A stretch of 58,525 bases of DNA from the NCBI GenBank assembly GCA_003551435.1, contig PUMQ01000004.1, positions 1 through 58,525 of the forward strand, read 5' to 3'. Each line of letters starts with the position of its first letter. The stretch's first letter is position 1. This document shows, piece after piece, positions 3,614-52,832 of this stretch. The notes beneath the pieces are model-generated. The model was not told the origin of the DNA and made no database searches. It worked only from the letters and a program-made list of their open reading frames with translations. The translations under genes and the position numbers were made by a program. This DNA comes from Candidatus Nealsonbacteria bacterium (lineage in GTDB: Bacteria; Patescibacteriota; Minisyncoccia; Minisyncoccales; PWPS01).

Positions 3614-3635
3614 ATTCTGAAATTTGCAAGGGTTT

Positions 3636-3667: not shown

Positions 3668-3686
3668 CAGAAAAGAAAAACAGTGT

Positions 3687-3959
3687 TTATTTCACCGCGT
3701 CTTTCAATGCTTTACCGGCTTTGAATTTGGGAACTTTCGCTGCTGCAATCTTGATTTTTTCTCCGGTTCTCGGATTTACTCCTTGCCTTGCTTTTCTTTT
3801 GGCGACAGAAAAAGTGCCGAAACCGGTAAGGGTTACGTCTTTTCCTTTTTTTAACGCTCCGCTAACTTCTTCCAGGACAGCGTTTAAACACTTTCCTGCT
3901 TGAGCTTTGGATATTTTGGCTTTTTTTGCCAATGCTTCTACAAGATCTTGTTTGCTCAT
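3687..3959 (-). CDS. hup: HU family DNA-binding protein
   Basis: 90 aa: [60 protein letters not shown], a typical HU/IHF sequence. Confidence 0.95.
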
Positions 3960-6337: not shown

Positions 6338-7666
6338 ATGGAAGAACAAAATTACGACAAGCAGGGTAATCTCGAAAAAAAGACGAGCAAAAAAATTGTT
6401 TTGGGGATTGCTGTTGTAACGGTTTTTTCTGCTCTCTTGGTGATTTTTTTCTTCTCTGGAAAAAGAGACAATCCCACTCACCTTTCGGCGGAAACAGTTT
6501 CTTTCCAGGAAATAAAGCTTTCCTGGACGGGAGATGAAAACGCCCGCCAGTTTAATATCTATCGCGCGGAAGATCCTGGGGGTCCCTACGAAAGAGTCGG
6601 CTTTTCAGAAGAGCCGGAGTTTCTGGACAAAGGATTGCGCCCAAACACAGAGTACTTCTACAAGGTTACCCAGATTGTTGACTTTAGAGAAAGCTCTTTT
6701 AGCGGAAGAGCGGGGAGTGTAACTGACCCTGCCGCTCCGACGGGAGTAAGAGCGGAAGCGGTTGATTTTCAAAGAGAAATGCGCTTGCAAATTGATCTTA
6801 ACTGGGATTATGTGGTGGGAGCGGATAAGTACGTTGTTTACCGATCCGAGCACGAAGGAGGAGTTTACGAAAAAATAGCGGAAACATCGCTTGAAAACTA
6901 CTCGGATGCCGATATACAGCCGCACACCACTTACTACTACGCGATTACCCAGATTACGGATGAAAAGGAGAGCGTTTACAGCAAGGAGGTGAGTGCTACA
7001 ACCGGATCAGCGTGGCATTGCGGAGACGATTTAGAGTATGGAGGAAAGGTTTATTCCACAGTGGAAATAGGAGAACAGTGCTGGTTCCGGGAAAATATGG
7101 ATATTACGGAAGAAAAAATTGAGAGGAATTGTAAGATAGAAAGATACTGTTACGACAATGATCAGGTGATGTGTGATGTTTATGGGAGCCTGTACACTTT
7201 TTCCGGTATATCTTGCGGACAGAACGTTGAAGGAATGCGCGGAATATGTCCTTTGGGATGGCGGATTCCCACCGATGATGATTGGAAAAAACTGGAGACG
7301 GAAGTGGGGATAAGAGGCGGAGAGCTTGGAGCTTACGGGTTCCGGGGTACAGATGAGGGAAGCAAGCTGGCGGGAAGGCGTGAATTGTGGAAGCAGGGCC
7401 CTTTAACACAGAGTGGAGCTTTTGGAAGTTCCGGATTAGACCTTCTTCCCGGAGGCTACCAGCCGGCGTTTAACTTGAGACTGTTTTACAACTTGAAGGA
7501 AGGCGCTATTTTCTGGTCTTCTACTCGGGCAAACGAAGATGAAGAGTGCACCTATTGGGAAGCGGCTTACTCGGTTCGGGAACTGCACTACGACAGCGAA
7601 CAGTTAAAAAAACACTGTCACCTGGGAGTGGGAACGGCCTACCTTCGGTGTATGAGAGATTACTAG
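6338..7666 (+). CDS. Surface protein: N-terminal anchor, two FN3-like repeats, C-terminal FISUMP (Fibrobacter succinogenes major paralogous) domain
   Basis: Two repeated units (..Y.IYRAEDPGGPYERV..NTEYFYKVTQI / YVVYRSEHEGGVYEKI..HTTYYYAITQI). The C-terminus has CWFRENMD..YGSLYTF..CPLGWRIPTDDDWKKLE, typical of TIGR02145-type domains. Confidence 0.65.
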   Translation: MEEQNYDKQGNLEKKTSKKIVLGIAVVTVFSALLVIFFFSGKRDNPTHLSAETVSFQEIKLSWTGDENARQFNIYRAEDPGGPYERVGFSEEPEFLDKGLRPNTEYFYKVTQIVDFRESSFSGRAGSVTDPAAPTGVRAEAVDFQREMRLQIDLNWDYVVGADKYVVYRSEHEGGVYEKIAETSLENYSDADIQPHTTYYYAITQITDEKESVYSKEVSATTGSAWHCGDDLEYGGKVYSTVEIGEQCWFRENMDITEEKIERNCKIERYCYDNDQVMCDVYGSLYTFSGISCGQNVEGMRGICPLGWRIPTDDDWKKLETEVGIRGGELGAYGFRGTDEGSKLAGRRELWKQGPLTQSGAFGSSGLDLLPGGYQPAFNLRLFYNLKEGAIFWSSTRANEDEECTYWEAAYSVRELHYDSEQLKKHCHLGVGTAYLRCMRDY

Positions 7667-14963: not shown

Positions 14964-15030
14964 CGGAGGTCGGACCTCCGTAAACTTGCGAAGGTCGGAC
15001 CTTCGCAAACTTGCATAAGGTGGACCTCTG
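14964..15030. repeat. Cluster of three palindromic repeats (CGGAGGTCGGACCTCCG / TGCGAAGGTCGGACCTTCGCA / degenerate CATAAGGTGGACCTCTG) spaced by AAACTTG
   Basis: Read directly at 14964-14980, 14987-15007 and 15014-15030. The cluster starts 10 nt after the rnr stop. Confidence 0.85.
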
Positions 15031-15031
15031 T

Positions 15032-15060
15032 TTGACAAATGTCCAGTATTCTGATATAAT
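15032..15060 (+). promoter_or_regulatory. Consensus sigma-70-type promoter (TTGACA-N17-TATAAT)
   Basis: TTGACA at 15032-15037 and TATAAT at 15055-15060. A GGGAGG Shine-Dalgarno sequence and ATG 15114 lie downstream. Confidence 0.7.
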
Positions 15061-15113
15061 ATAGAAAGCTCTATTCATAGAGAGAAAAAAGATTTTACAG
15101 GGAGGAAAAAATA

Positions 15114-15296
15114 ATGAAAAGATTTATCTCTTTGCTCTTTTTGGTAATTTTGTTTATTTTGTCCCTCTGGCCCGCTCTCTGTATAGGAGAATGGTTGGCA
15201 AAAAGTCTATTCAATGCTTTCATTATTCAGGGCTTTCTGATCATGATAGTGTTCCGGCTTTTTGTCTTTATATTTAAGATTTTAAAATCCGCCTAA
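15114..15296 (+). CDS. Small (60-aa) two-TM membrane protein
   Basis: It has its own consensus promoter, a GGGAGG ribosome-binding site and a terminator, forming a self-contained unit. Confidence 0.55.
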   Translation: MKRFISLLFLVILFILSLWPALCIGEWLAKSLFNAFIIQGFLIMIVFRLFVFIFKILKSA

Positions 15297-15327
15297 GTGG
15301 GGCAAAAAAAAGCAGGATTGGGTAAAG

Positions 15328-16567: not shown

Positions 16568-16612
16568 CCAAAGGTCGGACCTCTGCAACTCTGCGAAGGT
16601 CGGACCTTTGCA
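16568..16612. repeat. Two palindromic repeat copies between the convergent tgt and topA genes
   Basis: CCAAAGGTCGGACCTCTG (16568-16585) and TGCGAAGGTCGGACCTTTGCA (16592-16612) fill the 52-nt gap between the two stop codons. Confidence 0.85.
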
Positions 16613-25014: not shown

Positions 25015-28000
25015 ATGGAAAACAAAGTTAGCAAGGTGATAAAAAGAGACGGAACGGTCGTTGATTTTGAAAAGGAAAAAATAGCCAATGCTGTCTTCAA
25101 GGCAATTACTTCCACAGGGCAAGGAGACGGGAAAAAATCAAAGGAAATTTCAGACAGAGTGGTGAAGCTCCTTAACAGGCGGTTTAAAAAAGAAGAGATT
25201 CCCCAGGTAGAGCAGATCCAGGATATCGTGGAAGAGGTTCTTATTTTGGAAGGATTGGTAGAGACTGCCCGGAGCTATATTCTTTACCGCGAGCAGAGAA
25301 GAAAGATAAGAGAGGCGGTAGTGGCCGTTGATGAATCAACGGAAATGGTGGACAAGTATATAAAAGAGATGGACTGGCAGGTTAAGGAAAACGCCAACAT
25401 GACCTACTCTCTGCAAGGGCTTAACCAGTACGCTATAAAAGAAGCGGCCAAAAAATACTGGCTAAATAGAATCTACCCGAAAGAGGTAAGAGAAGCCGGA
25501 GCAGAAGAGGACTTTCACATCCATAACTTGGAAACACTTGCTCCTTATTGCGCGGGGTGGGATCTTAACGATCTTCTTTTGCGGGGATTTGGCGGGGTGC
25601 CCTCGAAAATCGAGTCCAAACCGCCAAAGCACTTCAGAAGCGCCCTCGGGCAGCTGGTAAACTTTCTTTTTACTCTCCAAGGAGAAACGGCGGGAGCGAA
25701 CGCGGTAAGCAATTTTGACACTCTTCTTGCTCCTTTTATAAAATACGATAACTTGAACTACTCTCAGGTAAGGCAGGCGATGCAGGAGTTTTTGTTTAAC
25801 TGCATGGTGCCCACCCGCGTAGGCTTCCAGTGTCTTTCCGAAGATACTGAAATCTTAACCAGGAACGGGTGGAAGAAGTACGACGAAGTAAACAAGGGAG
25901 ATGTTATAAAAACCTTTAATACGGAAAAAGCGGTCGTGGAGGAAAAGAAGGTCAAGAAGGTGTTTAAAAGGGAGTATTCCGGTAAGATGTACAACGTCTT
26001 AAACAAAATCCAAGACCAACTCGTCTCTCCGGAACACAGAATGGTAAGGAAAAAATTCAATAGCGAAAATTACTGCTTGGAAAAAGTGGAAGATTTTATG
26101 AAACTGAAATCTCCGCAAATTGTTCCCATTTCTGCCGATAACAACAATAGAGAAATAAATTTAAAGGATGAAGAAATAAAGCTTATTGCCTGGATTGTTT
26201 CCGAGGGGACGATGGAAATTAAAAACAACTGGAGAAGAATAACAATCTACCAATCACGGATAAAAAATAAGGAAAAATACAACGAAATTATTTCTCTTTT
26301 GAAAAAGCTGAAGATAAACCACTCTCTCCAGGAGGGAGTAAAATCGTTGGGGCAAACCGTAACACAGATCAGATTTAATGCGGAAAACTCAAGAAAAATA
26401 TTAAAATGGTTTGATAGTAACGACAACGTAAAAGTTATTCCCAAGAAGTTTTTAGAGATGAGCCAGAGGCAAAGTAAGCTGTTTCTGGAAACTTATATTA
26501 AAGGGGACGGCCACGAGAACTGTAAAATAACGGTATCTAGCAAAAGAGCGCTTGGGGACCTGCAGAGAATTATCTTTAACTCGGGATATGGATTTACTAC
26601 CGCGGAAAGAATGTCTTCCGGGGTGGGCAACAAGATGCTTTACATAATAAGGGTGATTAGGCGCCGGGAAACGGGCATTAGCAAAGTAAAAAAGGTTAAT
26701 TACAAGGGGATTATCTGGTCTGTTAACACCGATAACGAAACAGTTATCGCCAAAAGAAAAGGAAAGGTTTTTATAACCGGCAACACTCCCTTTCTCAATG
26801 TTTCGCTGGATATTAACGTTCCCCACTTCTTAAAAGACCAGCCGGTTGTTATCGGAGGAAAGCCACAGGAAGAAACTTACGGCGAATTTCAGGAAGAGAT
26901 GAACATTTTCAACAAAGCTTTTTACGAATGCCTAATGGAGGGAGATTCCAAAAACAGGCCTTTTACCTTTCCCATTCCCACTATTTCTGTTACCAAAGAC
27001 TTTGACTGGAACAATCCTTCTCTTGAAAAAATGTGGGAAGCGACGGCTAAATACGGAATCAACTACTTTTCCAACTTTGTCCAGTCGGATATGAACCCCG
27101 AGGATTTCCGTTCAATGTGTCTTCACGCCGAAGAGGATATTTTTGTAAAAAAGGGAAGAGAGATTAGAAAAATAACCGTTGATGAGCTTTTTGAAGCCTA
27201 TAAGGGAAAAGAAATAGACAAAGAGTGGTTTGGAGTGAAAGAACCGATTGAAACAATCTCCCTGAACCCCGATACGGGCAAGTTAGAGTGGGCGGAGGTC
27301 GGTAAGTTTTTGAAAGTTAGCGAAGATGAGATGGTTTCCATAGAAGCTATGGACGGAAAAACGATGAATGTTAGTAAAAACCATCTTGTTGCGGTGTTTA
27401 CGGAAGAAGGGATTAAGACAAAGAAAGCGGAAGATATCAGTGAAGAGGACTTTCTTTTGGTTCTCAAAGACGGATCGGGCATTCTCAACACCGACAAGAA
27501 AGAAATAGACGAAAAGATGGCTTGGTTTATAGGCCTTTTCATCGCCGATGGTAATTATTTGTATGATAGCAGATATGAAGAAGAGGTTCTAAGAGGAGTG
27601 CAAATCACGTTTAACAGAAAAGAAAAGGCTTTGATAGAAAAGACCAAAGAGGTGGTGAAAAAACTTCTCGGGTATGAAATGAAATTTATTTTAGACAAGA
27701 GGTACGAAAACTCGCTTAGAGGATATATTTATCACAGTGAATTCGCGAAAAAACTGAAAGAAGAAATGGGTGTTTCCAAGTATGGCAAGCTGCCGAATTG
27801 GATCTGGTCCGCCGACAGTGAAACAGTGGAGGTTTTTCTTGAAGGATTTTTTGACGGTGACGGATATGAGGGAGGCAAGGAGATTCATATTAACGATTTT
27901 CAATTATCCAAGGAGCTTAATCTTCTTTTTCAGTTGGTCGGAATAAGTGTTACCTACAGAAGAAGAGAGAAATCCCAGATTATAAGAATCCAGCATGTTC

Positions 28001-29286
28001 TCGGACGGGGAAGTAACGGCAAAAAAGTGGTTAAAGATAAGCTTCACAACCTAATACCTCAATTTTTACTTGAAGAGAAAGGTTTTAAGAACGAAGAAGG
28101 AAAAAATGTCTATCAGTCATTTGGGTGTCGGCAAGTGTCTTTATCTTCTGTGGATAGATGGGACCTTGGCAACGACAAGATAGAGAAATTGAAGAAGTCG
28201 GATTTTGCCGTAGTAGAAGTAAGAAGTGTGAAAAAAGAAAAATTGGAATCGGGACAATTCTTTTATGATGTTGAGCTCAAGAAAAATCACTATTTTGTTC
28301 ATTCGGACGGAAACATTACCCATAACTGCTGTCGCCTCAGGTTGTCAAACAAAGAACTTATGAAAAGAGGAGGAGGGCTTTTCGGCTCGCATCCTCTTAC
28401 AGGCAGCCTGGGAGTAGTGACTATCAATCTTCCTCGTATCGGGTACTTGTCCAAAACAAATAAAGATTTTTACGAGAGACTGGGAAGACTGATGGATCTT
28501 GCCAGAGATTCGCTGGAAGTAAAGAGAAAAGCATTGGAAAACTTCATGGAAAAAGGGCTTTATCCTTACTCCAAATACTACCTTTCTCCGGTTAAAAAGC
28601 TGAGAGGGAGTTATTTCGGAAATCACTTTTCCACTATCGGCCTTATAGGAATGAACGAAGCGCTTTTAAACTTTCTCGGAGAGGATATCTCTTCTAAAAG
28701 AGGAAGAAAGTTTTCTCTGGAGGTTTTGGATTTTATGCGCGACAGATTGGTTGAGTATCAGGAAAAAACAGGCCACCTTTATAATCTTGAAGCCACTCCT
28801 GGAGAGGGAACCGCTTACCGTCAGGCGAGAATAGACAAAGAAAAATATCCCGACATTATCACCGCCGGCACGGAAAAAATTCCCTACTACACAAATTCCA
28901 CCCACCTCCCGGTTGGCTTTACGGACGACATATTTGAAGCATTAGAGCTTCAGGACGAGTTGCAGTGCAAATATACCGGAGGCACGGTAGCCCACCTTTT
29001 CTTGGGAGAAAGAATATCGGACCCCGAAGTGGCAAAAAACATTATTCGCAAAGTGTTTGAGAAGTTTCATCTTCCCTACGTTACTCTTACTCCCACTTTC
29101 TCTATTTGTCCCCACCACGGGTACTTAAGCGGACAGTACTTTGAGTGCCCTAAGTGTACTATAAAACAGCCTTGCGAAGTTTATTCGCGGATAGTAGGGT
29201 ATCTACGTCCCGTAAAGCAGTGGCACGAAGGAAAACAGCAAGAGTTCAAAGAAAGAAAAGAGTACGCCATACCCAAGACCAAATGA
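25015..29286 (+). CDS. nrdD: Anaerobic (class III) ribonucleoside-triphosphate reductase containing two inteins
   Basis: N-terminal ATP-cone (VIKRDGTVVDFEKEKI). NrdD core motifs flank the insertions (..RVGFQ|TPFLNV.., ..FRSM|CCRLRL..). The C-terminus has a Cys zinc site (CPHHG..CPKC) and the glycyl-radical motif YSRIVGYLRP. The extein totals 702 aa of the 1423 aa. Confidence 0.9.
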   Translation: MENKVSKVIKRDGTVVDFEKEKIANAVFKAITSTGQGDGKKSKEISDRVVKLLNRRFKKEEIPQVEQIQDIVEEVLILEGLVETARSYILYREQRRKIREAVVAVDESTEMVDKYIKEMDWQVKENANMTYSLQGLNQYAIKEAAKKYWLNRIYPKEVREAGAEEDFHIHNLETLAPYCAGWDLNDLLLRGFGGVPSKIESKPPKHFRSALGQLVNFLFTLQGETAGANAVSNFDTLLAPFIKYDNLNYSQVRQAMQEFLFNCMVPTRVGFQCLSEDTEILTRNGWKKYDEVNKGDVIKTFNTEKAVVEEKKVKKVFKREYSGKMYNVLNKIQDQLVSPEHRMVRKKFNSENYCLEKVEDFMKLKSPQIVPISADNNNREINLKDEEIKLIAWIVSEGTMEIKNNWRRITIYQSRIKNKEKYNEIISLLKKLKINHSLQEGVKSLGQTVTQIRFNAENSRKILKWFDSNDNVKVIPKKFLEMSQRQSKLFLETYIKGDGHENCKITVSSKRALGDLQRIIFNSGYGFTTAERMSSGVGNKMLYIIRVIRRRETGISKVKKVNYKGIIWSVNTDNETVIAKRKGKVFITGNTPFLNVSLDINVPHFLKDQPVVIGGKPQEETYGEFQEEMNIFNKAFYECLMEGDSKNRPFTFPIPTISVTKDFDWNNPSLEKMWEATAKYGINYFSNFVQSDMNPEDFRSMCLHAEEDIFVKKGREIRKITVDELFEAYKGKEIDKEWFGVKEPIETISLNPDTGKLEWAEVGKFLKVSEDEMVSIEAMDGKTMNVSKNHLVAVFTEEGIKTKKAEDISEEDFLLVLKDGSGILNTDKKEIDEKMAWFIGLFIADGNYLYDSRYEEEVLRGVQITFNRKEKALIEKTKEVVKKLLGYEMKFILDKRYENSLRGYIYHSEFAKKLKEEMGVSKYGKLPNWIWSADSETVEVFLEGFFDGDGYEGGKEIHINDFQLSKELNLLFQLVGISVTYRRREKSQIIRIQHVLGRGSNGKKVVKDKLHNLIPQFLLEEKGFKNEEGKNVYQSFGCRQVSLSSVDRWDLGNDKIEKLKKSDFAVVEVRSVKKEKLESGQFFYDVELKKNHYFVHSDGNITHNCCRLRLSNKELMKRGGGLFGSHPLTGSLGVVTINLPRIGYLSKTNKDFYERLGRLMDLARDSLEVKRKALENFMEKGLYPYSKYYLSPVKKLRGSYFGNHFSTIGLIGMNEALLNFLGEDISSKRGRKFSLEVLDFMRDRLVEYQEKTGHLYNLEATPGEGTAYRQARIDKEKYPDIITAGTEKIPYYTNSTHLPVGFTDDIFEALELQDELQCKYTGGTVAHLFLGERISDPEVAKNIIRKVFEKFHLPYVTLTPTFSICPHHGYLSGQYFECPKCTIKQPCEVYSRIVGYLRPVKQWHEGKQQEFKERKEYAIPKTK
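25831..26784 (+). mobile_element. Intein 1 with LAGLIDADG homing-endonuclease domain (residues 273-590, 318 aa)
   Basis: Starts CLSEDTEIL (Cys1). Block B is VSPEH. LAGLIDADG-like motifs are LIAWIVSEG and FLETYIKGDGH. Ends ..VFITGN followed by +1 Thr; the penultimate residue is Gly rather than His. Confidence 0.8.
27118..28326 (+). mobile_element. Intein 2 with LAGLIDADG homing-endonuclease domain (residues 702-1104, 403 aa)
   Basis: Starts CLHAEEDIFV (Cys1). Block B is VSKNH. LAGLIDADG motifs are WFIGLFIADGN and FLEGFFDGDGY. Ends ..GNITHN followed by +1 Cys of the conserved CCRL motif. Confidence 0.85.
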
Positions 29287-29981
29287 AAATAGGAGGCCTT
29301 CAAAAAACTACTCTTATAGACTATCCCGGAAAAGTGGCTACTACCGTTTTTTTATCCGGGTGTAATTTCCGTTGCGGGTACTGCTACAACCCGGAGCTTG
29401 TTTTGCCCGAAAAAGCAAAAAAACATCCGGAAATCTCCCAAGAAGACTTTTTCCGGTTTCTTGACTCCAGGAAAAACCTTCTTGACGGAGTTTGCGTTAC
29501 CGGAGGGGAACCGACTGTCAACCCGGAGCTTTCTTGGTTTTTAGGGGAAATAAAGAAAAGAGGGTTTTTGGTAAAGCTTGACACCAACGGCTCTCATCCG
29601 GAAACACTTGAAAACCTTTTTAAGAAAGGGCTTGTTGATTATGTGGCTATGGACATCAAGGCCCCTTTGGAAAAATACGAGGAGGTTACGGGAAGCAAGA
29701 TAGACAAGGAAAAAATTAAAAAAAGCATAGAGATTATTAAAAATTCAGAAATAGAGTACGAGTTTCGTACCACTCTCATTCCCGGGGTACACGGAAAAGA
29801 GGAAGTAAGTAAAATGGGGGAGCTTATAAAAGGAGCAAAAAGGTATTTTCTGCAAAACTTTATGCCGGAAAAAACGATAAACAACGGCTTTCTTGAAAAA
29901 AAACCTTTTGTCGTTAAGGATTTGGAAAACTTCCGTAAAGAAGCTTCTTTTTTCGTGGAAAATTGCAGTATAAGAGAGTAA
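29283..29981 (+). CDS. nrdG: Anaerobic ribonucleotide reductase activating protein (radical SAM)
   Basis: MKIGGLQKTTLIDYPGK..LSGCNFRCGYCYNPEL (CxxxCxxC). The ATG overlaps the nrdD stop as ATGA. The track's 29154 start lies inside nrdD. Confidence 0.85.
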   Translation: MKIGGLQKTTLIDYPGKVATTVFLSGCNFRCGYCYNPELVLPEKAKKHPEISQEDFFRFLDSRKNLLDGVCVTGGEPTVNPELSWFLGEIKKRGFLVKLDTNGSHPETLENLFKKGLVDYVAMDIKAPLEKYEEVTGSKIDKEKIKKSIEIIKNSEIEYEFRTTLIPGVHGKEEVSKMGELIKGAKRYFLQNFMPEKTINNGFLEKKPFVVKDLENFRKEASFFVENCSIRE

Positions 29982-30010
29982 TACGCTTCTAAGAAGCCGT
30001 TTCTTTTGCT

Positions 30011-31435
30011 ATGACTTTTTCCAAAGCGGTCTTCTTTTTTTCTTTGTCTTTTATTCTCGGGGTGTTTTTTGCTCCGGTGAGCCTTTTTTTCGGCCTTCTG
30101 TCCGTTTTTTCTTTTTACTGCCTCTCTCGCAGGCTCGTGGTTGCCGTTTTTTGCATGGTTTTCTTTCTTTTTGGCGCTTTTTCTTTCCACTCTTTTCTTT
30201 ACAACATCCCTTCTTCTGTAGAAAGCCCGGTTTACGGGGTGGTAAAAGAAGAACCGGTTCTAAGAGACAATTCCACGAGAGTTGTTTTTGAACATGAAGA
30301 AGGAAGAGCGCTTTTATATACCGAGTACTACGCGGATTACCGGTACGGGGACGTGCTTAAAACAAAAGGAGACTTTGTTAAGCCCGAGCCGGAAGAGTAT
30401 GCCAACTACCTTAAAAAAGAGGGGATATACCATCTCTCTTTTTTTCCGGAAATAGAAAAAAAGGGAAGTAAGGGAAGCGCTTTTTATAGAGCGCTCTTTT
30501 CTTTAAAAGAGATGGGAAGAAGAAACCTTCAAAGATCTATTCCTCCTCCCCAGCTTTTCCTTTCAGAGGCGATGGTTTTGGGAGAAAGAGATTCTTTTAC
30601 GCAGGACTTTAGCGAAAAGCTGAGCATTACTGGAACCCGCCATATTACCGCTATTTCCGGAATGCACATTGTTATCATTTCCGCTATGCTTTTTTATCTT
30701 TTTCTTTTTTTCAACTTGAAAAAAAGATGGGCGGCTCTTTTTTCTCTCTTTTTCATTTTCCTTTTTATTTTTTTTGTAGGTGTTCCCGCTTCGGCATTGA
30801 GAGCCGGAATAATGGGAGGAGCTCTTCTTTTGTCAAATGTTTTTTACAGGAAAACGGATACTTTTCGCCTTCTTTCCATGGCCGCGGCAGTAATGCTTGT
30901 TTTTAACCCTCTCCTTTTGCACTACGACTTGGGTTTCCAACTCTCATTTTTGGCGGTTTTGGGAATTATTTTTTTGCACCGCCCCGCAAAAAATCTTCTT
31001 TGCGGAATTAGATTCCCGGAGACCCGGCTTCCGGAACAGCGCCGTTTTGTAGAAATGATAAATAGATTTTTTGGGAAAAACGAAAGGATTGCGGACCTTG
31101 TTGCTGTAACTCTCGGAGCGCAGATTTTTGTTTTTCCCCTTATTTTGTACAATTTCGGGCACGTTTCTCTGGTTTCCGTGCCGGCAAATGTCCTTATTGT
31201 CCCCCTCCTCCCTTTTATTATGGTCTTCGGATTTTTAACCGCTCTTACGGGGTTTGTATTGTTTTCTTTTCCTTTGTATCTTTTCCTTTCTTTTGTTCTT
31301 TTTGTGGTTGATATTTTCTATGTTTTTCCTTTTTCGGCGGTTTTTATAGAAAACGTTCCTTTTTCTTTTATTTTCCTTTTTTACGCTCTGCTCTTCTACA
31401 AAATCTACGCGCTACAATCCCGGAACCCACAATAA
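30011..31435 (+). CDS. comEC: ComEC/Rec2 family competence channel protein (no C-terminal metallo-beta-lactamase domain)
   Basis: N-terminal OB/DUF4131-like region, then the polytopic domain with ITGTRHITAISGMHIVII (ComEC signature G..H..AISG.H). Confidence 0.8.
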   Translation: MTFSKAVFFFSLSFILGVFFAPVSLFFGLLSVFSFYCLSRRLVVAVFCMVFFLFGAFSFHSFLYNIPSSVESPVYGVVKEEPVLRDNSTRVVFEHEEGRALLYTEYYADYRYGDVLKTKGDFVKPEPEEYANYLKKEGIYHLSFFPEIEKKGSKGSAFYRALFSLKEMGRRNLQRSIPPPQLFLSEAMVLGERDSFTQDFSEKLSITGTRHITAISGMHIVIISAMLFYLFLFFNLKKRWAALFSLFFIFLFIFFVGVPASALRAGIMGGALLLSNVFYRKTDTFRLLSMAAAVMLVFNPLLLHYDLGFQLSFLAVLGIIFLHRPAKNLLCGIRFPETRLPEQRRFVEMINRFFGKNERIADLVAVTLGAQIFVFPLILYNFGHVSLVSVPANVLIVPLLPFIMVFGFLTALTGFVLFSFPLYLFLSFVLFVVDIFYVFPFSAVFIENVPFSFIFLFYALLFYKIYALQSRNPQ

Positions 31436-31438
31436 ATT

Positions 31439-31513
31439 TGCGAAGGTCGGACCTTCGCAAGTTCTCTGCAAGTTTGCAAAGGTCTGCAAATTTGCGAAGG
31501 TCGGACCTTCGCA
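31439..31513. repeat. Palindromic repeat cluster: two perfect TGCGAAGGTCGGACCTTCGCA copies flanking a truncated copy
   Basis: Perfect copies at 31439-31459 and 31493-31513. The truncated copy TTGCAAAGGTCTGCAA is at 31474-31489. GATTTT follows. The cluster starts 4 nt after the comEC stop. Confidence 0.9.
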
Positions 31514-31591
31514 GATTTTGTTGTATTTGTTTTTTTAAAGGAAAGTGATACTATGAAAGGTAAGAGAGTATTTTTAATCTTTTAAAACACT

Positions 31592-37120: not shown

Positions 37121-37385
37121 AAAGGACAGCCGTTTTTACTTTGCAAACTTTGCGGCGGATATATTGCGTTGTGCTGTCGCTTCGGCAGGCGGAAACAGAA
37201 AGCGATACCGGTCGTCTCTTATTCGCCTCCGCTCGTCTTTAAAATATTTGCGCAAAGCGGGGCGGCCCGAAGCGTATGAAGAGGCGCTTCTTCTGATGCT
37301 TGCCTTGAAATGTGCCAAAGAAGATAATAATATTTCAAAATTCAAAGAGGATGTTAACAGATTAATTTCTTCTACAAGCTTATGA
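37113..37385 (+). CDS. Hypothetical helical protein
   Basis: 90-aa ORF whose start overlaps the upstream stop and whose stop overlaps the htrA ATG, a pattern of translational coupling. Confidence 0.4.
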   Translation: MTEKDSRFYFANFAADILRCAVASAGGNRKRYRSSLIRLRSSLKYLRKAGRPEAYEEALLLMLALKCAKEDNNISKFKEDVNRLISSTSL

Positions 37386-38536
37386 AAAAAGGAATTTTAG
37401 CCGGGTTTGCCACTTTTCTTATTCTACTTGCCGTTCTTTTTGCGGGAATGGTTATTGGAGGAAACTTTTTTGACTTTGGAAGAGTTGAAGAGAAAGAGGA
37501 AGAAGAAAAGAAAGAGTACGAACCCGTCCTTGACCACGAAAGGGCGGTAATAGAAGTAGTCGAGAAAAATATTCCCGCGGTAGTTAGTATTGTCGCCACC
37601 AGGTATGTAGAGGATATCAGAGTTCCTTTCAGAGAGCTTTTTCTTCTTCCCGAAGACTATGAAGAAAGAGAAAGGCTGGAGACGGAACACGGAACCGGCT
37701 TTATAATCTCTCAAGACGGACTTATTTTAACCAACCGCCATGTGGTAGGCGACGAGGGTGCGGAATACACGGTGTTTTTGTCTACCGGAGAAATGGTTGA
37801 AGCGGAAGTTTTAGTCCGCGATCCGGTACAAGACTTGGCAGTTTTAAAAATAGAAAAAGAAGATCTTCCGACGGTAGCTATCGGAGACTCGGACACTGTC
37901 CGGCCCGGACAAACGGCCATTGCCATCGGCAATGCCCTGGGAGAGTTTGATGACACCGTTTCTGTGGGAGTTATTTCCGGAACGGGGCGCCGGGTGGTAG
38001 CGAGAGGAAGAGTGGGGACGGAGGTGCTTCACGACGTTATCCAGACTGATGCGGCCATTAATCTCGGGAACTCCGGAGGGCCGCTTCTTAATCTGGAAGG
38101 AGAAGTTATCGGAATAAACACCGCTACTGCCATGCATGCCGAAGGAATCGGATTTGCCATTCCTGTAAACAGGGCTAAAAGAGCTGTTGAGGCGGCAAGA
38201 GAAGGGAAGGAAATAGCCTATCCTTTTTTGGGAGTCCGCTACGTAATGGTAGATAGCGAAGTTAAGCGAGAAAGAAACCTTCCTGTTGATTACGGAGCGC
38301 TGATTATTTCCGGAGGGCCCGGAGAAGAAGCCGTTTACTACGGATCGGCTGCGGATTCGGCGGGATTGAGAGAAGGGGATATCCTTCTTGAATTTGACGA
38401 AGAAAAACTAACCAAAGAAAATCATTTAGCGACGGTTATCACGCGCTACTATCCGGGAGATGAAGTGGATCTTAAAGTTTTGCGCGGTGACAAAGAAAAA
38501 GAAATGCGCATAACTCTCGGAGAAATGCCCGACTAG
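37382..38536 (+). CDS. htrA: HtrA/DegP-family serine protease with PDZ domain
   Basis: N-terminal anchor. Catalytic triad contexts are TNRHVV, DLAVLK and GNSGGPLLN. A PDZ-like domain forms the C-terminus. Confidence 0.9.
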   Translation: MKKGILAGFATFLILLAVLFAGMVIGGNFFDFGRVEEKEEEEKKEYEPVLDHERAVIEVVEKNIPAVVSIVATRYVEDIRVPFRELFLLPEDYEERERLETEHGTGFIISQDGLILTNRHVVGDEGAEYTVFLSTGEMVEAEVLVRDPVQDLAVLKIEKEDLPTVAIGDSDTVRPGQTAIAIGNALGEFDDTVSVGVISGTGRRVVARGRVGTEVLHDVIQTDAAINLGNSGGPLLNLEGEVIGINTATAMHAEGIGFAIPVNRAKRAVEAAREGKEIAYPFLGVRYVMVDSEVKRERNLPVDYGALIISGGPGEEAVYYGSAADSAGLREGDILLEFDEEKLTKENHLATVITRYYPGDEVDLKVLRGDKEKEMRITLGEMPD

Positions 38537-38540
38537 CTTC

Positions 38541-38602
38541 CCGCAAAGTTGCGAAGGTCGGACCTCCGCACCTCCGCAAAGTTGCGAAGGTCGGACCTTT
38601 GC
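38541..38602. repeat. Tandem duplication of CCGCAAAGTTGCGAAGGTCGGACCT (two palindromic repeat copies)
   Basis: Palindromes at 38550-38570 and 38583-38602, each preceded by CCGCAAAGT. The duplication starts 5 nt after the htrA stop. Confidence 0.9.
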
Positions 38603-38640
38603 TCCTTTGTTATTTTTTTGTGGTGTTTTTTAGGATTTAC

Positions 38641-38669
38641 TTGACAAAAAAATAAAACAAAGGTAGAAT
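38641..38669 (+). promoter_or_regulatory. Near-consensus promoter (TTGACA-N17-TAGAAT)
   Basis: TTGACA at 38641-38646 and TAGAAT at 38664-38669. Confidence 0.65.
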
Positions 38670-38675
38670 GAAAAT

Positions 38676-38956
38676 GTGGGGTCCTTTTTCTTTCCGACTA
38701 GACCCTTAGTCCTCTTCCAAAGAGGGCCCCCGCCAAAGTTCTTTAAGATTCCTCCGCCGGGTACTTGGATCCCTTAGAGTACTGCAACACCGAGAGAAGG
38801 ACGCTTCTATTTGATTGAAGAGACGATTTACCCCGGCGGGGGAGAAAAAAAGCAACGCAACGTTGCTTACATATAAAAAGGGGGCTTCCCTGGTTTTTTT
38901 GGCACCTCGCTGCCAACACAACACTCCTTTCCCTGGGCTAAGCTCCCTCTTTTTTT
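38676..38956 (+). ncRNA. Candidate GC-rich structured RNA (~280 nt): independent ncRNA or regulatory leader of clpB; family unassigned
   Basis: It lies between a promoter and a terminator. Helices: 38678-84/38724-30 (one G.U), enclosing hairpins 38696-38711 and 38711-38725. A 13-bp helix pairs 38751-63 with 38829-42 (one bulge, one G.U). A perfect hairpin sits at 38851-67, and a helix at 38900-04/38911-15. The terminal helix 38880-87/38940-47 (one G.U) is followed by TCTTTTTTT. A second hairpin at 38957-73 follows. Confidence 0.5.
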
Positions 38957-38976
38957 CGGCCATTTTTTGGCCGTTC

Positions 38977-39004
38977 TTGATTTTTAAGTAAAAAATGATA
39001 TCAT
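38977..39004 (+). promoter_or_regulatory. Possible clpB-proximal promoter (TTGATT-N16-TGaTATCAT)
   Basis: TTGATT at 38977-82, an extended -10 TG at 38996-97, and TATCAT at 38999-39004, 44 nt upstream of ATG 39048. Confidence 0.45.
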
Positions 39005-39047
39005 GACAGTCCGAGAGAGTTAATTGTCACTAATATTATTTACCACC

Positions 39048-41771
39048 ATGCCAACAGTACCGGGTTCAAATTTCACCCACAAAGCTCAGCAGGCAATTAT
39101 TAATTCCCAGAAAATTGCCTATCAGAAGGGGAATCGCCAAATAGATCCGCTTCATCTTTTGCTTGCTTTGCTTTTGCAAGAAGAAAGTATTGTTTTAAAT
39201 GTATTAAAAAGAACGGGAGTGGATGTGGAGATGCTAAAAAAGAGAATTAGCCGTTCTATTAGAGCTATTCCCAATGATTCGGCCGCGCAAGAAGGAGCAA
39301 CCGGCCAGTTTTACCTTTCCCAAGAAGTGGCTCGGATACTAAAAACAGCCGGAGACGAAGCGGACAAGATGCAAGACAAGTTCATCTCCGTAGAACACCT
39401 CTTCCTCTCCCTTCTTTTAACCGAAACAAGAACGAGAGATATTCTGCAAACGGCTACTTTCCTTCCTCCCGGAAAAGGGGGTCCCGATCCGATGGAGGCG
39501 GAAAAATTAAGTTATGACTTGGTAAAGGCGAAACTCCGCGATATTCGGGGAAATCAGCAGATTACAGACCCTCACCCAGAATCAAAAATGCAGGTTTTGG
39601 AAAAATACACTACCAATCTTACCGAGATGGCAAGACAGGGAAAGATAGACCCGGTAGTGGGAAGGAAGAAAGAAATGAGGAGGTTGATGCAGGTTCTTTC
39701 AAGGAGGACAAAGAACAACCCCGTCCTTGTAGGAGAAGCGGGGACAGGAAAAACGGCTATTGTGGAAGGATTAGCCCAAAGAATAGCCAAGAAAGACGTC
39801 CCCGAGAGCCTGAAAAACAAGGAAGTGATAGCTCTTGATATAGGGTCTCTTGTGGCCGGCACAAGATACAGAGGGGAGTTTGAAAACAGGGTTAAAGCGC
39901 TCCTTAAAGAGGTAAAAAACAAGAAAGACAGATACATCCTCTTTATAGACGAACTGCATACCATTATCGGCGCCGGGGCGGCGGAAGGGTCTGTTGACGC
40001 TTCCAATCTTTTAAAGCCGGATCTTGCCCGCGGTGAGCTCCGGGCTATCGGAGCAACCACCATGAAAGAGTATCAGAGATATATAGAAAGAGACCCCGCT
40101 CTTGAAAGAAGGTTCCAGCCGATTACCGTTTCAGAGCCTACCGAAGAAGAGGCAATTCAGATATTAAGGGGGATAAAAGAAAAGTACGAGATGCATCACG
40201 GGGTGAAAATAGAAGAGTCGGCTCTCAAGGCGGCGGTAGAGCTGTCCGCGCGCTATATTACCGACAGATATCTTCCGGACAAGGCGGTAGACCTTATGGA
40301 CGAGGCGATGAGCTCTCTCAGGTTGGAGGTGGAATCCCAGCCGGTGAAGCTGGAAGACCTTAAAAAAGAGATTCAAGATCTGGAAATTGAGATGGAATCT
40401 CTGAAAAACAGCAACTCGGAAGGAACCGAGAAAAGAAAAAGAGTTATCTCCCGCCAGCTTGCCGACCTTAAAGAGAAAGCAGGCGAGCTTGAAGCAAGGT
40501 GGAGCGCGGAGAGGGAAACTATCGCCCACATAAAAAAACTAAAAAGCGAGATAGATAATCTAAAGTACGAGGCGGAAAGAGCGGGCCAGGAGGCGGATTT
40601 GCAAAAAGTGGCGGAGATTAAGTACGGAAAGATTCCCGAACTTACCAAAGAGCTCAATTCGGAAGAAAAAAAGCTTAAAAATCTACAAAAGAAAAAGGCG
40701 GTTCTCAAAGAATCGGTTACAAGAGAAGACGTGGCCGGGGTTGTTTCCCGCTGGACGGGCATTCCGGTAATGAGCATGCTTGAAGAAGAAGCGAAAAAGC
40801 TCCAAAAGATGGAAAAGATAGTATCTCGCCGGGTAGTCGGCCAAAACGAGGCGATTGCCGCCGTTTCCAATGCTATTCGCCGGGCCCGCGCCGGAGTTTC
40901 GGACGAGAACAAGCCCTTGGGTTCTTTTCTCTTCCTTGGCCCTACCGGAGTGGGGAAAACGGAAACCGCCCGAGCACTGGCAGAATTTCTTTTTAGCAGT
41001 GAAAGCGCCCTTATCCGCCTTGATATGTCCGAGTACATGGAGATGCACTCTGTTTCCAAAATGATAGGGGCTCCTCCCGGATACGTGGGACATGAAGATT
41101 CAGGGCAGCTCAGCGAGGCGGTGCGTAAAAGGCCCTACAGCGTAATTCTTGTTGATGAGGTGGAAAAAGCCCACCCTGACGTGTTTAATATACTCCTGCA
41201 GGTATTAGAAGACGGGCAGCTTACGGACGCCAAAGGAAGGAAAGTTTCCTTTAAAAATACGATAATTGTTATGACTTCCAATGTGGGGTCAGAGCACATT
41301 ACCGAGATGGAAGCGATAGGGTTTGATGCCAAAGAAGAAGAAAGCGCTAAAGAAAACTTAAAAGAAAAAGTTACCGAGGCGCTTAAAAAGACGTTCCGTC
41401 CCGAGTTTATCAACCGGATTGACGACATTATCATCTTTAACCACTTAACAGAGGAGAATATTAATAAGATTGCCGATCTTGAGCTGGAAAAAGTGGAAAA
41501 AAGGATGAAAGAGAACCATGACATCACGGTAACCTTCCAAAAACAAGTAAGAGATATGCTTGCCAAGGAGGGTTTTGACAAAAGCATGGGTGCTCGCCCA
41601 ATGAAAAGGCTGATCCAGAAGAAAATTCTCAATCCGCTTGCCTTGGAGATAATATCCAAAGATACCGAGCCGGGAGAGAGGATTACGGTTAAAATGAAAG
41701 GAGACGATGTGGCTTTTGAAGTAACGGGAAAAAGAACAAATAAAAAAAGAGAACAGATATCCGTAAGATAA
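39048..41771 (+). CDS. clpB: ClpB chaperone (AAA+ disaggregase)
   Basis: Clp N-domain repeats. NBD1 has GEAGTGKTA and NBD2 has GPTGVGKTE. A long coiled-coil middle domain is typical of ClpB. ATG 39048 is preferred over TTG 39024. Confidence 0.9.
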   Translation: MPTVPGSNFTHKAQQAIINSQKIAYQKGNRQIDPLHLLLALLLQEESIVLNVLKRTGVDVEMLKKRISRSIRAIPNDSAAQEGATGQFYLSQEVARILKTAGDEADKMQDKFISVEHLFLSLLLTETRTRDILQTATFLPPGKGGPDPMEAEKLSYDLVKAKLRDIRGNQQITDPHPESKMQVLEKYTTNLTEMARQGKIDPVVGRKKEMRRLMQVLSRRTKNNPVLVGEAGTGKTAIVEGLAQRIAKKDVPESLKNKEVIALDIGSLVAGTRYRGEFENRVKALLKEVKNKKDRYILFIDELHTIIGAGAAEGSVDASNLLKPDLARGELRAIGATTMKEYQRYIERDPALERRFQPITVSEPTEEEAIQILRGIKEKYEMHHGVKIEESALKAAVELSARYITDRYLPDKAVDLMDEAMSSLRLEVESQPVKLEDLKKEIQDLEIEMESLKNSNSEGTEKRKRVISRQLADLKEKAGELEARWSAERETIAHIKKLKSEIDNLKYEAERAGQEADLQKVAEIKYGKIPELTKELNSEEKKLKNLQKKKAVLKESVTREDVAGVVSRWTGIPVMSMLEEEAKKLQKMEKIVSRRVVGQNEAIAAVSNAIRRARAGVSDENKPLGSFLFLGPTGVGKTETARALAEFLFSSESALIRLDMSEYMEMHSVSKMIGAPPGYVGHEDSGQLSEAVRKRPYSVILVDEVEKAHPDVFNILLQVLEDGQLTDAKGRKVSFKNTIIVMTSNVGSEHITEMEAIGFDAKEEESAKENLKEKVTEALKKTFRPEFINRIDDIIIFNHLTEENINKIADLELEKVEKRMKENHDITVTFQKQVRDMLAKEGFDKSMGARPMKRLIQKKILNPLALEIISKDTEPGERITVKMKGDDVAFEVTGKRTNKKREQISVR

Positions 41772-43038: not shown

Positions 43039-43311
43039 AAATATTCCTCCTTTTTTTTGGAAACAAGTCAGGCCCCTTGTTTTCCTTTTTAGAAAGATCT
43101 TTTCGGCCTGAGGGAGACTAAGAAAGAACCTCTCTCAAGCAAAAAAGAAAACCTCCCGTTTTTTCGGGAGGTTTTGATGAAGTCTATTTATTTATTATGT
43201 TTGTATGCGGCTAAAAAGAAAACCTCCCGAACCTTTCGTAAGGAGAATGATAATAAAGAAGATAATGTTTTGCAGGGAAGTTTTCATAAAATTCCGAAAC
43301 AGTTTTTATAT
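43039..43311 (-). promoter_or_regulatory. ~270-nt leader with mutually exclusive terminator and antiterminator pairings and a 30-codon Ile/Phe/Leu-rich leader ORF
   Basis: On the - strand CGGGAGGTTTT occurs twice (43229-43219 and 43158-43148), around AAAACCTCCCG (43175-43165). The central segment plus the downstream copy form an 11-bp terminator followed by CTTTTTT. The central segment plus the upstream copy form the alternative hairpin. The leader ORF (43287-43195) encodes MKTSLQNIIFFIIILLTKGSGGFLFSRIQT and covers the upstream copy. Confidence 0.5.
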
Positions 43312-43317
43312 TCCGCC

Positions 43318-43345
43318 ATTATATTAATATTTGAAAACTTGTCAA
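43318..43345 (-). promoter_or_regulatory. Consensus promoter (TTGACA-N16-TATAAT) for the leader and the 42580-43038 gene
   Basis: -35 at 43345-43340 and -10 at 43323-43318 on the - strand. Confidence 0.7.
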
Positions 43346-43356
43346 GAGCGAGGCGT

Positions 43357-43385
43357 TTGACAAAAATTATTAAATAGATTATATT
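43357..43385 (+). promoter_or_regulatory. Divergent promoter (TTGACA-N17-TATATT) for the small-gene operon at 43433-44047
   Basis: TTGACA at 43357-62 and TATATT at 43380-85. Its -35 lies 11 nt from the -35 of the opposing promoter. Confidence 0.65.
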
Positions 43386-43432
43386 CCGCTAACTTTTCAT
43401 TGTTTTTATTCTTTTAAAGGAGGGATTTCGCA

Positions 43433-43681
43433 GTGAAAAGATGTAAAGAGTGTGAAAGGAGGGAAGCGACTCGAGGGCTAAATAATATCAACAACATTGG
43501 AAACCTTGAGTTTTGTCCGAACCCCGAGTGTAGAGTTGCCCACATCGTGGGCATGGGGCCTCCTGAAGAGATGATTCACTCTCTTCCAAAACACGAAGAG
43601 GAAAAGAAGATAAAAAACGCTACCGAAAAAGGGTGTTGGGACAAGATTCTGGAAGCACCGTCTTCCCGGAAAACAAAGTAA
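43433..43681 (+). CDS. Small zinc-ribbon-like protein (82 aa)
   Basis: GTG start 7 nt after AGGAGGG. Cysteine pattern CKEC..(21)..CPNPEC. Confidence 0.5.
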   Translation: MKRCKECERREATRGLNNINNIGNLEFCPNPECRVAHIVGMGPPEEMIHSLPKHEEEKKIKNATEKGCWDKILEAPSSRKTK

Positions 43682-47380: not shown

Positions 47381-47950
47381 ATGGAAAAAGAAATCCTCCA
47401 GAAAATCTACAACCTCCGCAAGGTAAAGCCTGACAGTGATTGGGTGGAAAAAACTAAAGAAAGCATCCTTAAAGAAGATGCCGTTTTTGATGGCAGCAGG
47501 TTCTCTTTTTCCGATTACTTTGCTATTCCCGCTTTCCGAAACGGACTTACAGTAGCCGGAGCTTGTGCTTTCCTGCTCGCCTTTGTTATTCTAGCCTTTC
47601 CCCTTCTTCCTTCAAACTACGAGAGCAACTTTGCCTATATCCCCGCGCCGGTAGGAGTGGTAGAAGAAAGAGATAAGGTGAGAGAGGTTTCCGAAGAGGA
47701 CGAAGTGGCGGCCAAGAGAGCGCGACTTGAAGACCCCGTAAGAAGCGAGTATGATCTTTTGATGAGCGTTTACCGCGAGCTTCAGTCGGAGGTTCTGGGA
47801 ACAAGGTTTAATACGGAAGATCCCAAAGAGATGGCTGAAAGGGCGCTTGAAGAGATGAAAGAGATGGGAGTGGACACAAAGCAGGCGGAAGATGCGTTTG
47901 AAGAAGAAGATTACTTTGAAGTTCTTGACATTTATCTTGAACAAGAATAA
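47381..47950 (+). CDS. Single-pass membrane protein, positional candidate anti-sigma factor
   Basis: 189 aa with a central TM segment (LTVAGACAFLLAFVILAFPLL). It sits directly downstream of the ECF sigma gene. No zinc-binding anti-sigma motif is visible. Confidence 0.4.
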   Translation: MEKEILQKIYNLRKVKPDSDWVEKTKESILKEDAVFDGSRFSFSDYFAIPAFRNGLTVAGACAFLLAFVILAFPLLPSNYESNFAYIPAPVGVVEERDKVREVSEEDEVAAKRARLEDPVRSEYDLLMSVYRELQSEVLGTRFNTEDPKEMAERALEEMKEMGVDTKQAEDAFEEEDYFEVLDIYLEQE

Positions 47951-48011
47951 AATCACGGAATATTTAAATGTTTAACAATTCGGAAGTTAGAAGAAGCCAG
48001 TCGTTTTCCAT

Positions 48012-48070
48012 TGTCCTCACACCACACAGGTGGCGTGGGGACTCCCATGCCAGTTTTTGGTGTGAGGACA
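48012..48070 (+). other. Long two-tier hairpin (13-bp perfect stem plus 8-bp apical stem)
   Basis: TGTCCTCACACCA (48012-24) pairs with TGGTGTGAGGACA (48058-70). The apical stem GGCGTGGG-GACT-CCCATGCC (48032-51) has one G.U pair valid only on the + strand. A GAAGGTCGG half-repeat follows at 48072-80. Confidence 0.6.
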
Positions 48071-48198
48071 GGAAGGTCGGCAACGACAGTATTACAAAGA
48101 AGGTTTCCTTAGAAAGCGAGTTTGTTTTCTAAAGGAAGCAGTTGTTGAATTAATAACCTGCAGGACGCGTAATAAAAACGCGCCTGCCAAAAGAAAAA

Positions 48199-52777: not shown

Positions 52778-52798
52778 TGCAAAGGTCCGACCTTCGCA
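52778..52798. repeat. Palindromic repeat copy in inverted orientation (TGCAAAGGTCCGACCTTCGCA)
   Basis: The central asymmetric base is reversed (GGTCCGACC versus GGTCGGACC elsewhere). Confidence 0.8.
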
Positions 52799-52832
52799 AA
52801 ATGTGCGGTATTTTGTCTTTTGTCTTTTTTCG

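Follow-up and report, generated by a model that had tools for sequence, protein, structure and literature searches.

The intergenic region between the genes htrA and clpB in a 58,525-nucleotide (nt) stretch of Candidatus Nealsonbacteria DNA (contig PUMQ01000004.1 of assembly GCA_003551435.1; the whole stretch is termed the window in the following) probably, though by no means certainly, contains the gene of a non-coding, structured small RNA (sRNA). The gene would extend on the plus strand from 38676 to 38956, or to 38973, with a length of about 280 nt, and would represent a small, undescribed family. As judged from its sequences, this family appears to be limited to some Nealsonbacteria-like Patescibacteria, with three related lineages so far, and to one slot, htrA-clpB. 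The region has an intergenic promoter of its own, a Rho-independent terminator and no conserved reading frame, and compensatory changes are found in its helices, on three sequences and on alignments fitted to the model. The RNA is presumably transcribed and stable. A sequence-only reading of the window had already proposed that a structured non-coding RNA is encoded here on the plus strand, between a promoter and a terminator of its own, and this proposal is borne out by the promoter, by the two terminators and by the folding of the plus strand (z = −3.4) in comparison to the minus strand (z = −1.8).

The architecture predicted for the window RNA comprises five helical domains. The elements of the gene are given below; helices with a pair probability of 0.86 or more are regarded as being of high confidence.

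38641–38669, plus strand: RNA promoter, sigma-70-type, TTGACA-N17-TAGAAT, matching the consensus at 11 of 12 positions
38678–38730, plus strand: P1, a 12-bp helix (38678–38689/38719–38730) with CU-rich internal loops and an apical hairpin at 38696–38711 (pair probabilities 0.86 and 0.93)
38738–38750, plus strand: conserved, unpaired linker GUUCUUUAAGAUU (pair probabilities, alignment)
38750–38843, plus strand: P2 domain with a 12-bp GC-rich closing helix (38750–38761/38832–38843; pair probability 0.93) and a poorly defined interior
38850–38868, plus strand: P3 hairpin AAGCAACG-CAA-CGUUGCUU, 8 bp, with an A-run before it (pair probability 0.96)
38879–38956, plus strand: T1, the conserved 3′ domain, in which a G-rich 5′ arm and a CU-rich 3′ arm (38879–38890/38935–38948) are followed by U7 at 38950–38956 (folding)
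38899–38916, plus strand: Ta, a hairpin inside T1 displaying CCUCGC, with the invariant CACCUCGC at 38903–38910 (folding, alignment)
38921–38930, plus strand: unpaired ACACUCCUUU after Ta (folding)
38957–38973, plus strand: T2, a second terminator hairpin, CGGCCA-UUUUU-UGGCCG, with a U-rich tail (terminator search and folding)

Transcription is predicted to start at about 38676, so that the sigma-70-type promoter would have the RNA begin directly with the long 5′ helix P1. This would be followed by the conserved unpaired linker, the GC-clamped P2 domain and the small P3 hairpin. The RNA would end in the domain common to all three lineages, where the G-rich/CU-rich helix and the U-run would act as intrinsic terminator, while the hairpin within this helix would display the invariant CACCUCGC, followed by unpaired CACUC(C)UU. 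The GGCC hairpin of T2 would stop residual read-through just ahead of the clpB promoter. From 38676 the plus strand folds to −104 kcal/mol. The sequence-only reading had described the 5′ domain as two hairpins closed by GGGGUCC/GGGCCCC; the domain is structured, but a single 12-bp helix topped by one apical hairpin describes it better, a version that is backed by covariation. Likewise, the two further helices it had named do exist, P2 having 12 bp instead of 13 and P3 8 bp instead of 7. G·U pairs agree with the plus strand as had been argued, although nine instead of three are counted in the minimum free energy (MFE) structure and five within the confident helices. Within the P2 domain, GAUUUACC at 38825–38832 is conserved, and the linker GUUCUUUAAGAUU aligns with GUUCUUUAAAAUU of the homologous loci L110, L111 and L106 described below.

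Nine sites in the window match the promoter consensus at at least 11 of 12 positions; seven of these are intergenic, and most lie ahead of genes, from which it follows that the consensus is meaningful in, and used by, this organism. A TTGACAAAAA-type promoter is found at the equivalent place in L111 (10/12), L106 (TTGACA-N17-TAGTAT) and L113 (TTGACA-N17-TATAAA). The region had also been described as conspicuously GC-rich. Its GC content is indeed higher than that of the window, yet only modestly so, 49.8% versus 42.3%. Of the 12 long gaps or segments tested (range 34–44%) it has the highest value, and among 281-nt windows it ranks in the top 7%. The GC-richness of the region is thus real, though modest. 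Since the independent Logan assembly SRR490150 is identical to the window base for base across 7.7 kb, the region is no assembly artefact.

With nhmmer and a single-sequence covariance model (CM), no match was obtained in 80 clpB loci of GTDB, and an orphan insertion was first concluded; this was overturned by contigs of non-representative genomes that were reached via HtrA homologues. A full-length copy is present between htrA and clpB in L110/L111 (GCA_003560725 and GCA_003567375; spacer 462–478 nt), whose HtrA is 90% identical to that of L106 and whose ClpB is 81% identical to that of the window. This copy is matched by R1, a CM of the 5′ 195 nt, with 47 bits (E = 1e-11) and by R2, a CM built on the 3′ domain, with 25–29 bits, and its fold has a z of −6.2. 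L106, from an ENA sample, contains a hairpin resembling repetitive extragenic palindromes (REP-like hairpin), then the promoter and the first 107 nt of the homologous RNA up to the contig end. In L113 (GCA_003560665), which is also found in Logan SRR490128/129 as L114/L115, the spacer is 288 nt long; the 5′ part is shorter and different, while the 3′ domain is clearly homologous (R2 with L113–L115, 51 bits, E = 5e-8; fold z = −3.8). Every RNA-bearing locus has htrA as the upstream neighbour. The T1 helix with U7–U9 and the T2 hairpin are present in all three lineages; T2 is kept in L111 and L113, its top pair being changed from A-U to G-C in L113. No further matches to R1 or R2 were found in about 70 loci of relatives. 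In a database of 5.8 billion proteins the nearest HtrA is only 66% identical, and a search with the ClpB N-terminus for closer relatives gave none above 55% identity. A metagenome scan with the 18-mer ATTCCTCCGCCGGGTACT, a stretch that was later found not to be conserved, returned 21 chance matches only.

Conservation and covariation in relatives had been set beforehand as a check on the element, and homologues with compensatory changes are found in two other lineages. As the helices fell out of register when the 3′ domain was aligned with MAFFT, pairs were counted on CM-based alignments. For P1, P2 and P3, in the comparison of the window with L111, 100% of 75 cells are paired, with 9 both-side changes (slid controls, 46–61% and 0–3); for T1, Ta and T2 in three sequences, 98% of 58 cells are paired, with 6 both-side changes (slid controls, 35–57% and 0–2). 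All 12 pairs of P1 are kept in L111, with two both-side changes (G-C to A-U and U-A to C-G) and two one-side changes. The 12-bp GC-rich P2 helix is retained as UUCCCUCCGCCG/CGGCGGAGGGAA, and P3 takes the form AAGCAACA-UUU-UGUUGCU, in which the top pair is changed from G-C to A-U. Folded separately, the 3′ domains of all three lineages assume the same architecture, and the stem of the CCUCGC hairpin differs in each of them (UUGGCA/UGCCAA, AAGCA/UGCUU and GAAAAA/UUUUUC). The invariant blocks are CACCUCGC, CAC-UC(C)UU, GUUCUUUAA-AUU, GAUUUACC and GGCCGUUCUUGAUU. At 4-fold degenerate sites of clpB and htrA the carrier lineages are 37–46% identical, which is near saturation; over alignment columns, the identity of the RNA is 55% for the full length (window and L111) and 69% for the 3′ domain (window and L113). 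The RNA is conserved above the neutral level, with pair-preserving substitutions.

The carriers are found scattered over the HtrA tree. At the htrA/clpB locus, the only kind of locus considered here, the element is absent from L073, L009, L001, L002, L007, L108, L112, L116 and L117; L107 is also without it in the sequence after htrA, where the contig ends. In the closest GTDB representatives by ClpB (L073, 83% identical; L001, 79%; L009, 78%; L002/L007, 77%), htrA or another gene is followed by clpB within about 30–110 nt, and in 29 related genomes the sequence upstream of clpB mostly measures 25–220 nt; the htrA-clpB spacer of the window has 511 nt. Since most close relatives do not have the element at their clpB loci, the RNA is probably not a housekeeping RNA, one of the roles offered by the sequence-only reading. 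L117, which groups as sister to L113 in the HtrA phylogeny, has CGGCGTTCTTGATT where carriers have GGCCGTTCTTGATT; CGGCGTTCTTGATT looks like a deletion scar or remnant of the element. The simplest history would be that of an ancestral element with repeated loss, and recombination exchange among co-occurring relatives is a possible alternative. As separate observations on this slot, L107 contains after htrA (2800–3000) tandem copies of GTCATTCCCGCATCTTCTCT that end in the palindrome GTCATTCCCGCGCAAGCGGGAATCC and belong to another repeat family, and in the more distant L008 the space ahead of the clpB promoter is taken by the gene of a small protein that has a promoter and a terminator of its own (3630–3947), while a DUF3800-V RNA (Rfam, 58 bits) lies downstream of clpB (7366–7463).

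No known RNA family had been recognized in the sequence-only reading, and this holds. Rfam 15, the coverage of which includes 6S, RNase P, SRP, tmRNA, T-box, riboswitches, csRNA and ROSE/fourU, gave 0 matches in the whole window at the gathering score; at E ≤ 10, nothing credible was found in 38450–39150, nor in the L111 and L113 copies. ARAGORN found no tRNA or tmRNA. Candidate structured non-coding RNAs are obtained from long GC-rich intergenic regions of AT-rich genomes by the pipeline of the Breaker laboratory (PMC6429828, PMC8632094, PMC11109978). The window RNA is similar to such candidates, since its intergenic region surpasses those around it in length and GC content and since it shows covariation in a few relatives; in contrast to them, none of the Rfam 15 families derived from those studies includes it, and it comprises three lineages only.

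The 16S rRNA ends in the anti-Shine-Dalgarno (anti-SD) tail CACCUCCUUU, and both CACCUCGC and the unpaired CACUCCUUU of the terminator domain resemble it. Similar motifs are known from the csRNAs of streptococci, i.e., small RNAs dependent on CiaR, which display unpaired anti-SD stretches and in whose CiaR regulon htrA is also found; hallmarks of csRNAs are a CiaR-box promoter of the type TTTAAG-N5-TTTAAG and an unpaired anti-SD/anti-AUG stretch between two stem-loops (PMC3091779). The window RNA shares with the csRNAs the small size, a transcription unit of its own, intrinsic terminators and a pyrimidine-rich unpaired stretch complementary to SD-type sequences. It is, however, two to three times longer, has the extra domains P1 and P2 and lacks sequence and Rfam similarity to them; its promoter is a plain TTGACA-N17-TAGAAT in which no CiaR-type TTTAAG-N5-TTTAAG is seen, its organism is mostly without Shine-Dalgarno (SD) sequences, and no anti-start-codon CAU has been established beside the motif. 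Moreover, csRNAs share a regulon with htrA, whereas the window RNA physically adjoins it. With regard to class assignment, the RNA is not a csRNA, the CU-rich unpaired motif being the sole resemblance. In the C-rich-seed sRNAs of the RsaE/RoxS type from Gram-positive bacteria, conserved C/U-rich motifs are located in loops or unpaired near the Rho-independent terminator. The window RNA is comparable in having C/U-rich motifs by the terminator and a presumed action in trans; it differs in size, fold and phylum and has no Rfam match.

Because the motifs of the terminator domain resemble the anti-SD tail, as do those of csRNAs, a trans-acting mode of pairing is favoured. Base pairing of the conserved CU-rich motifs with purine-rich mRNA sites is accordingly put forward as a tentative proposal, which is possible rather than probable; among the roles suggested in the sequence-only reading, a trans-acting RNA would be the best remaining one. 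Beyond this, the window RNA might be the first riboregulator of the candidate phyla radiation (CPR), in which the CACCUCGC loop and CACUCCUUU would mimic the 16S tail and bind either the SD-led minority of mRNAs or an SD-recognising protein within an htrA-clpB proteostasis stress module, but this is a speculative idea of low probability. Within its 5′ part the RNA of each lineage has a 7-nt complement to the loop ACCUCGC: GUGGGGU (nt 1) in the window copy, GCGAGGU (nt 3) in the L111 copy and AGCGAGG in that of L113; a 7-nt complement is reached by 5–12% of shuffles in each lineage. At most, this hints at a long-range contact between the 5′ end and the terminator loop; in the speculative riboregulator reading, such a GYGRGGU/ACCUCGC contact may switch the motifs on and off. 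As to individual targets, the gene at 55647 (duplexfold z = −5) was considered and rejected, since the signal vanished in cofolding with intramolecular structure.

Several observations weigh against an sRNA gene of this kind. Nine close relatives with a ClpB 77–83% identical to that of the window do without the element, having 69–160 nt between htrA and clpB, and the element is thus dispensable. The covariation is derived from three independent sequences in alignments fitted to the model, and the six double changes in P2, which depend on shifting the register of a repetitive CCG helix by one base, are to be discounted. The fold of the window copy, with z-values of −2.8 to −3.4, is ordinary for this DNA, in which other intergenic regions reach −3 to −9. 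In L113, the −10 hexamer TATAAA is without the usual final T. Target prediction across the 58-kb window yielded nothing robust. Finally, a weak or better SD sequence is found at only about 9 of 56 candidate starts in the window and at neither clpB nor htrA; as most genes of the window are without SD, the idea of an anti-SD seed is weakened.

The alternatives to an sRNA gene concern the two neighbouring genes, the promoter of clpB and a minus-strand open reading frame (ORF).

37382–38536, plus strand: htrA, S1C serine protease with PDZ domain (ORF; Pfam Trypsin_2/PDZ_2)
38541–38606, plus strand: REP-like hairpin of a dispersed family (GCGAAGGTCGGACCTTYGC), present twice in tandem, with a T-run after the second copy (repeat search and folding)
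38706–38963, minus strand: spurious ORF of 85 amino acids (homology, Pfam, codon usage)
38977–39004, plus strand: clpB promoter, TTGATT-N16-(TG)ATATCAT, extended −10, outside the RNA (promoter search)
39048–41771, plus strand: clpB (Pfam Clp_N, AAA, AAA_2, ClpB_D2-small)

The sequence-only reading had considered a leader of clpB, either riboswitch or thermosensor. In such a case, or if 38641 were a second, regulated clpB promoter, transcripts would stop at T1/T2 and read through upon heat, a ligand or a protein, with the CACUCCUUU copy competing with the 3′ arm of the terminator for the G-rich 5′ arm. The position of the RNA directly upstream of clpB and in the same orientation in all three lineages, with 3 nt between the end of T2 and the −35 of clpB, would fit, as would the ability of the G-rich arm to pair with CUCCUUU in a truncated intermediate of the window copy and the nature of both neighbours as heat-shock/proteostasis genes. 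Structured GC-rich RNA with a terminator on the same strand upstream of a gene is also what riboswitch, T-box and thermometer leaders have in common with the element. However, the separate extended −10 promoter that had been suspected ahead of clpB is found at 38977–39004, downstream of both T1 and T2, and is conserved as TTGATT-N16/17-TGATATCAT in 12 relatives, RNA-bearing or not. Two or three tandem terminators point to insulation rather than control, L111 and L113 show the alternative pairing weakly or not at all, T2 would halt read-through regardless, and no riboswitch, T-box or thermometer match or signature is found in Rfam. A leader is therefore distinctly unlikely: since two terminators and the conserved clpB promoter intervene, and nine close relatives use this promoter without the RNA, the clpB of most relatives doing without the element, the RNA does not appear to be a clpB leader. 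From the anatomy of the locus, T1 and T2 would insulate clpB from the strong upstream RNA promoter. A related alternative is that the element merely terminates or insulates htrA as part of its 3′-untranslated region, the 5′ part being fast-evolving filler and the promoter matches fortuitous. It is the terminator domain alone that is common to all three lineages; L113 has no other terminator between htrA and the element, and L117 carries no RNA but CGGCGTTCTTGATT, a likely remnant. Yet a terminator needs neither an invariant loop motif nor the conserved unpaired CACUCCUUU, a TTGACAAAAA-type promoter is found at the right distance in all three lineages, P1, linker, P2 and P3 are kept between the window and L111 with compensatory changes, and both of these loci already have a REP-like htrA terminator upstream of the promoter, all of which makes this explanation unlikely, though it keeps some weight.

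The patchiness on the HtrA tree, the origin of all carriers from related samples (SRR4901xx, PW* assemblies and one ENA sample) and the adjoining REP-like repeats would be expected of a non-functional insertion or a mobile-element remnant spread by recombination among co-occurring relatives. No match was obtained from phages or plasmids with blastn, and scans of viral contigs with four patterns gave none or chance matches in GC-rich coding DNA; the element is single in the window, has no terminal repeats, keeps slot and orientation constant and is conserved above synonymous sites with pair-preserving changes. This alternative is thus quite improbable, and because of its single copy, the lack of terminal repeats and of phage, plasmid or viral matches and the constant slot, the RNA would not be mobile DNA. 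The conservation of CACCTC and CACTC at a distance of 17–19 bp in all three lineages could also be understood at the level of DNA, if the repeat CACCTCGC ... CACTCC, 50–75 bp upstream of the clpB −35, were a transcription-factor site for clpB. Here the flanking helices covary in a manner relevant to RNA alone, relatives without the motifs retain the same clpB promoter, and the motifs are unlike CIRCE or CtsR boxes when the sequence is compared by eye with the published consensus sequences, so that such a site is very unlikely. A protein product, finally, has next to no probability. ORFs do exist, on the minus strand the one of 85 amino acids and on the plus strand small ones such as a 33-codon GTG ORF at 38676, and the absence of an SD sequence is no argument against them, since most genes of the window have none. 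Nevertheless, among 1.84 billion protein representatives the 85-amino acid ORF matched only itself and two tandem-repeat artefacts, a Pfam search with it gave no match, and it is absent from the gene calls of the Logan annotation. Its codon-usage score of −0.08 lies with those of spurious ORFs (−0.12 ± 0.10) and away from those of real genes (0.24 ± 0.07), and codon usage is non-coding for all four ORFs of the region. Indels among the homologues are not multiples of three, the plus-strand frame meets a stop in L113, and a minus-strand terminator (38868–38850) falls inside the 85-amino acid ORF. A pseudogene remnant was rejected as well, because six-frame tblastn of the region against the available DNA matched REP-like repeats alone. 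The region 38676–38956 has no coding capacity, and the 85-amino acid ORF is not a gene, as the sequence-only reading had anticipated.

If the sRNA gene is real, its interest lies in the organisms concerned. Patescibacteria are ultra-small and host-dependent, and almost nothing is known about their regulatory RNAs. Their genomes are streamlined, so that keeping 280 nt of non-coding DNA comes at a real cost. A structured RNA that is conserved yet repeatedly lost, between the genes of a stress protease and a chaperone, would provide a testable entry point with defined motifs and boundaries, for which sister lineages without the RNA would serve as natural knock-outs. Taken alone, it would be one more candidate sRNA of very narrow distribution, a new family of a familiar kind.

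The window comes from an uncultivated bacterium close to Candidatus Nealsonbacteria (Patescibacteria), as the ClpB of the window is 77–83% identical to that of metagenome-assembled genomes bearing this name; the ATG of clpB at 39048 agrees with the start in relatives. The tandem REP-like pair at 38541–38606, with a unit of 33 nt, is probably the terminator of htrA and separate from the RNA. L111 has one REP-like copy at the equivalent place, and similar hairpins follow htrA in L106, L111 and L117. Further members of this hairpin family, which has the core (G)CGAAGGTCGGACCTTCG(C) and occurs in single or tandem copies, are located at the 3′ ends of genes at 1504, 14968–15014, 16573–16606, 31432–31520 and 52784–52805. 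A short imperfect palindrome is thus found at six sites in 58 kb, all of them gene ends, and often in tandem, which is typical of REP-like elements; the family is REP-like or else a stereotyped terminator. The likeness to REP palindromes, i.e., short GC-rich hairpins that are often tandem and located at gene 3′ ends, applies to 38541–38606 alone, outside the RNA, and no REP-associated tyrosine transposase (RAYT) is seen in the window. Between this terminator and the RNA, an AT-rich inverted repeat of 19 nt (38604–38663; 84% complementary, with 12 nt perfect, TTATTTTTTTGT/ACAAAAAAATAA) covers the U-tail of the htrA terminator with its left arm and the −35 and spacer of the RNA promoter with its right arm. 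It might serve as an operator or form a hairpin on read-through, and weak Phe_leader and miRNA-type Rfam matches are due to it. Downstream of the RNA, the −10 region of clpB, TGATATCA (38995–39004), is palindromic, so that the extended −10 is readable on either strand; together with the minus-strand terminator at P3, a short antisense transcript of about 120–140 nt is conceivable.

Elsewhere in the window, the anaerobic ribonucleotide reductase NrdD (25015–29286) contains an intein bearing a LAGLIDADG homing-endonuclease domain and is followed by 724 nt (29287–30010) without a long ORF. The intergenic region 43039–43477 contains divergent near-perfect promoters, at 43357 on the plus strand (11/12) and at 43345 on the minus strand (12/12), and at 43075–43176 (minus strand) the Streptococcus sRNA SSRC34 of Rfam is matched below threshold (48 bits versus a gathering score of 64; E = 6e-4). 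Between the genes of RNase R and tgt (15032–15297), a 12/12 extended −10 promoter precedes a membrane-like ORF of about 60 codons, which has a strong GGGAGG SD sequence and its own terminator. At 47925–48198, upstream of a 699-amino acid protein with a PG_binding_1 domain, about 240 nt of non-coding sequence without an Rfam match come after a promoter of the form TTGACA-N17-TAAAAT (11/12). By its predicted fold on the plus strand (MFE −93 kcal/mol, z = −9.0, including a 13-bp perfect stem), this region is structurally more striking than the htrA-clpB RNA.

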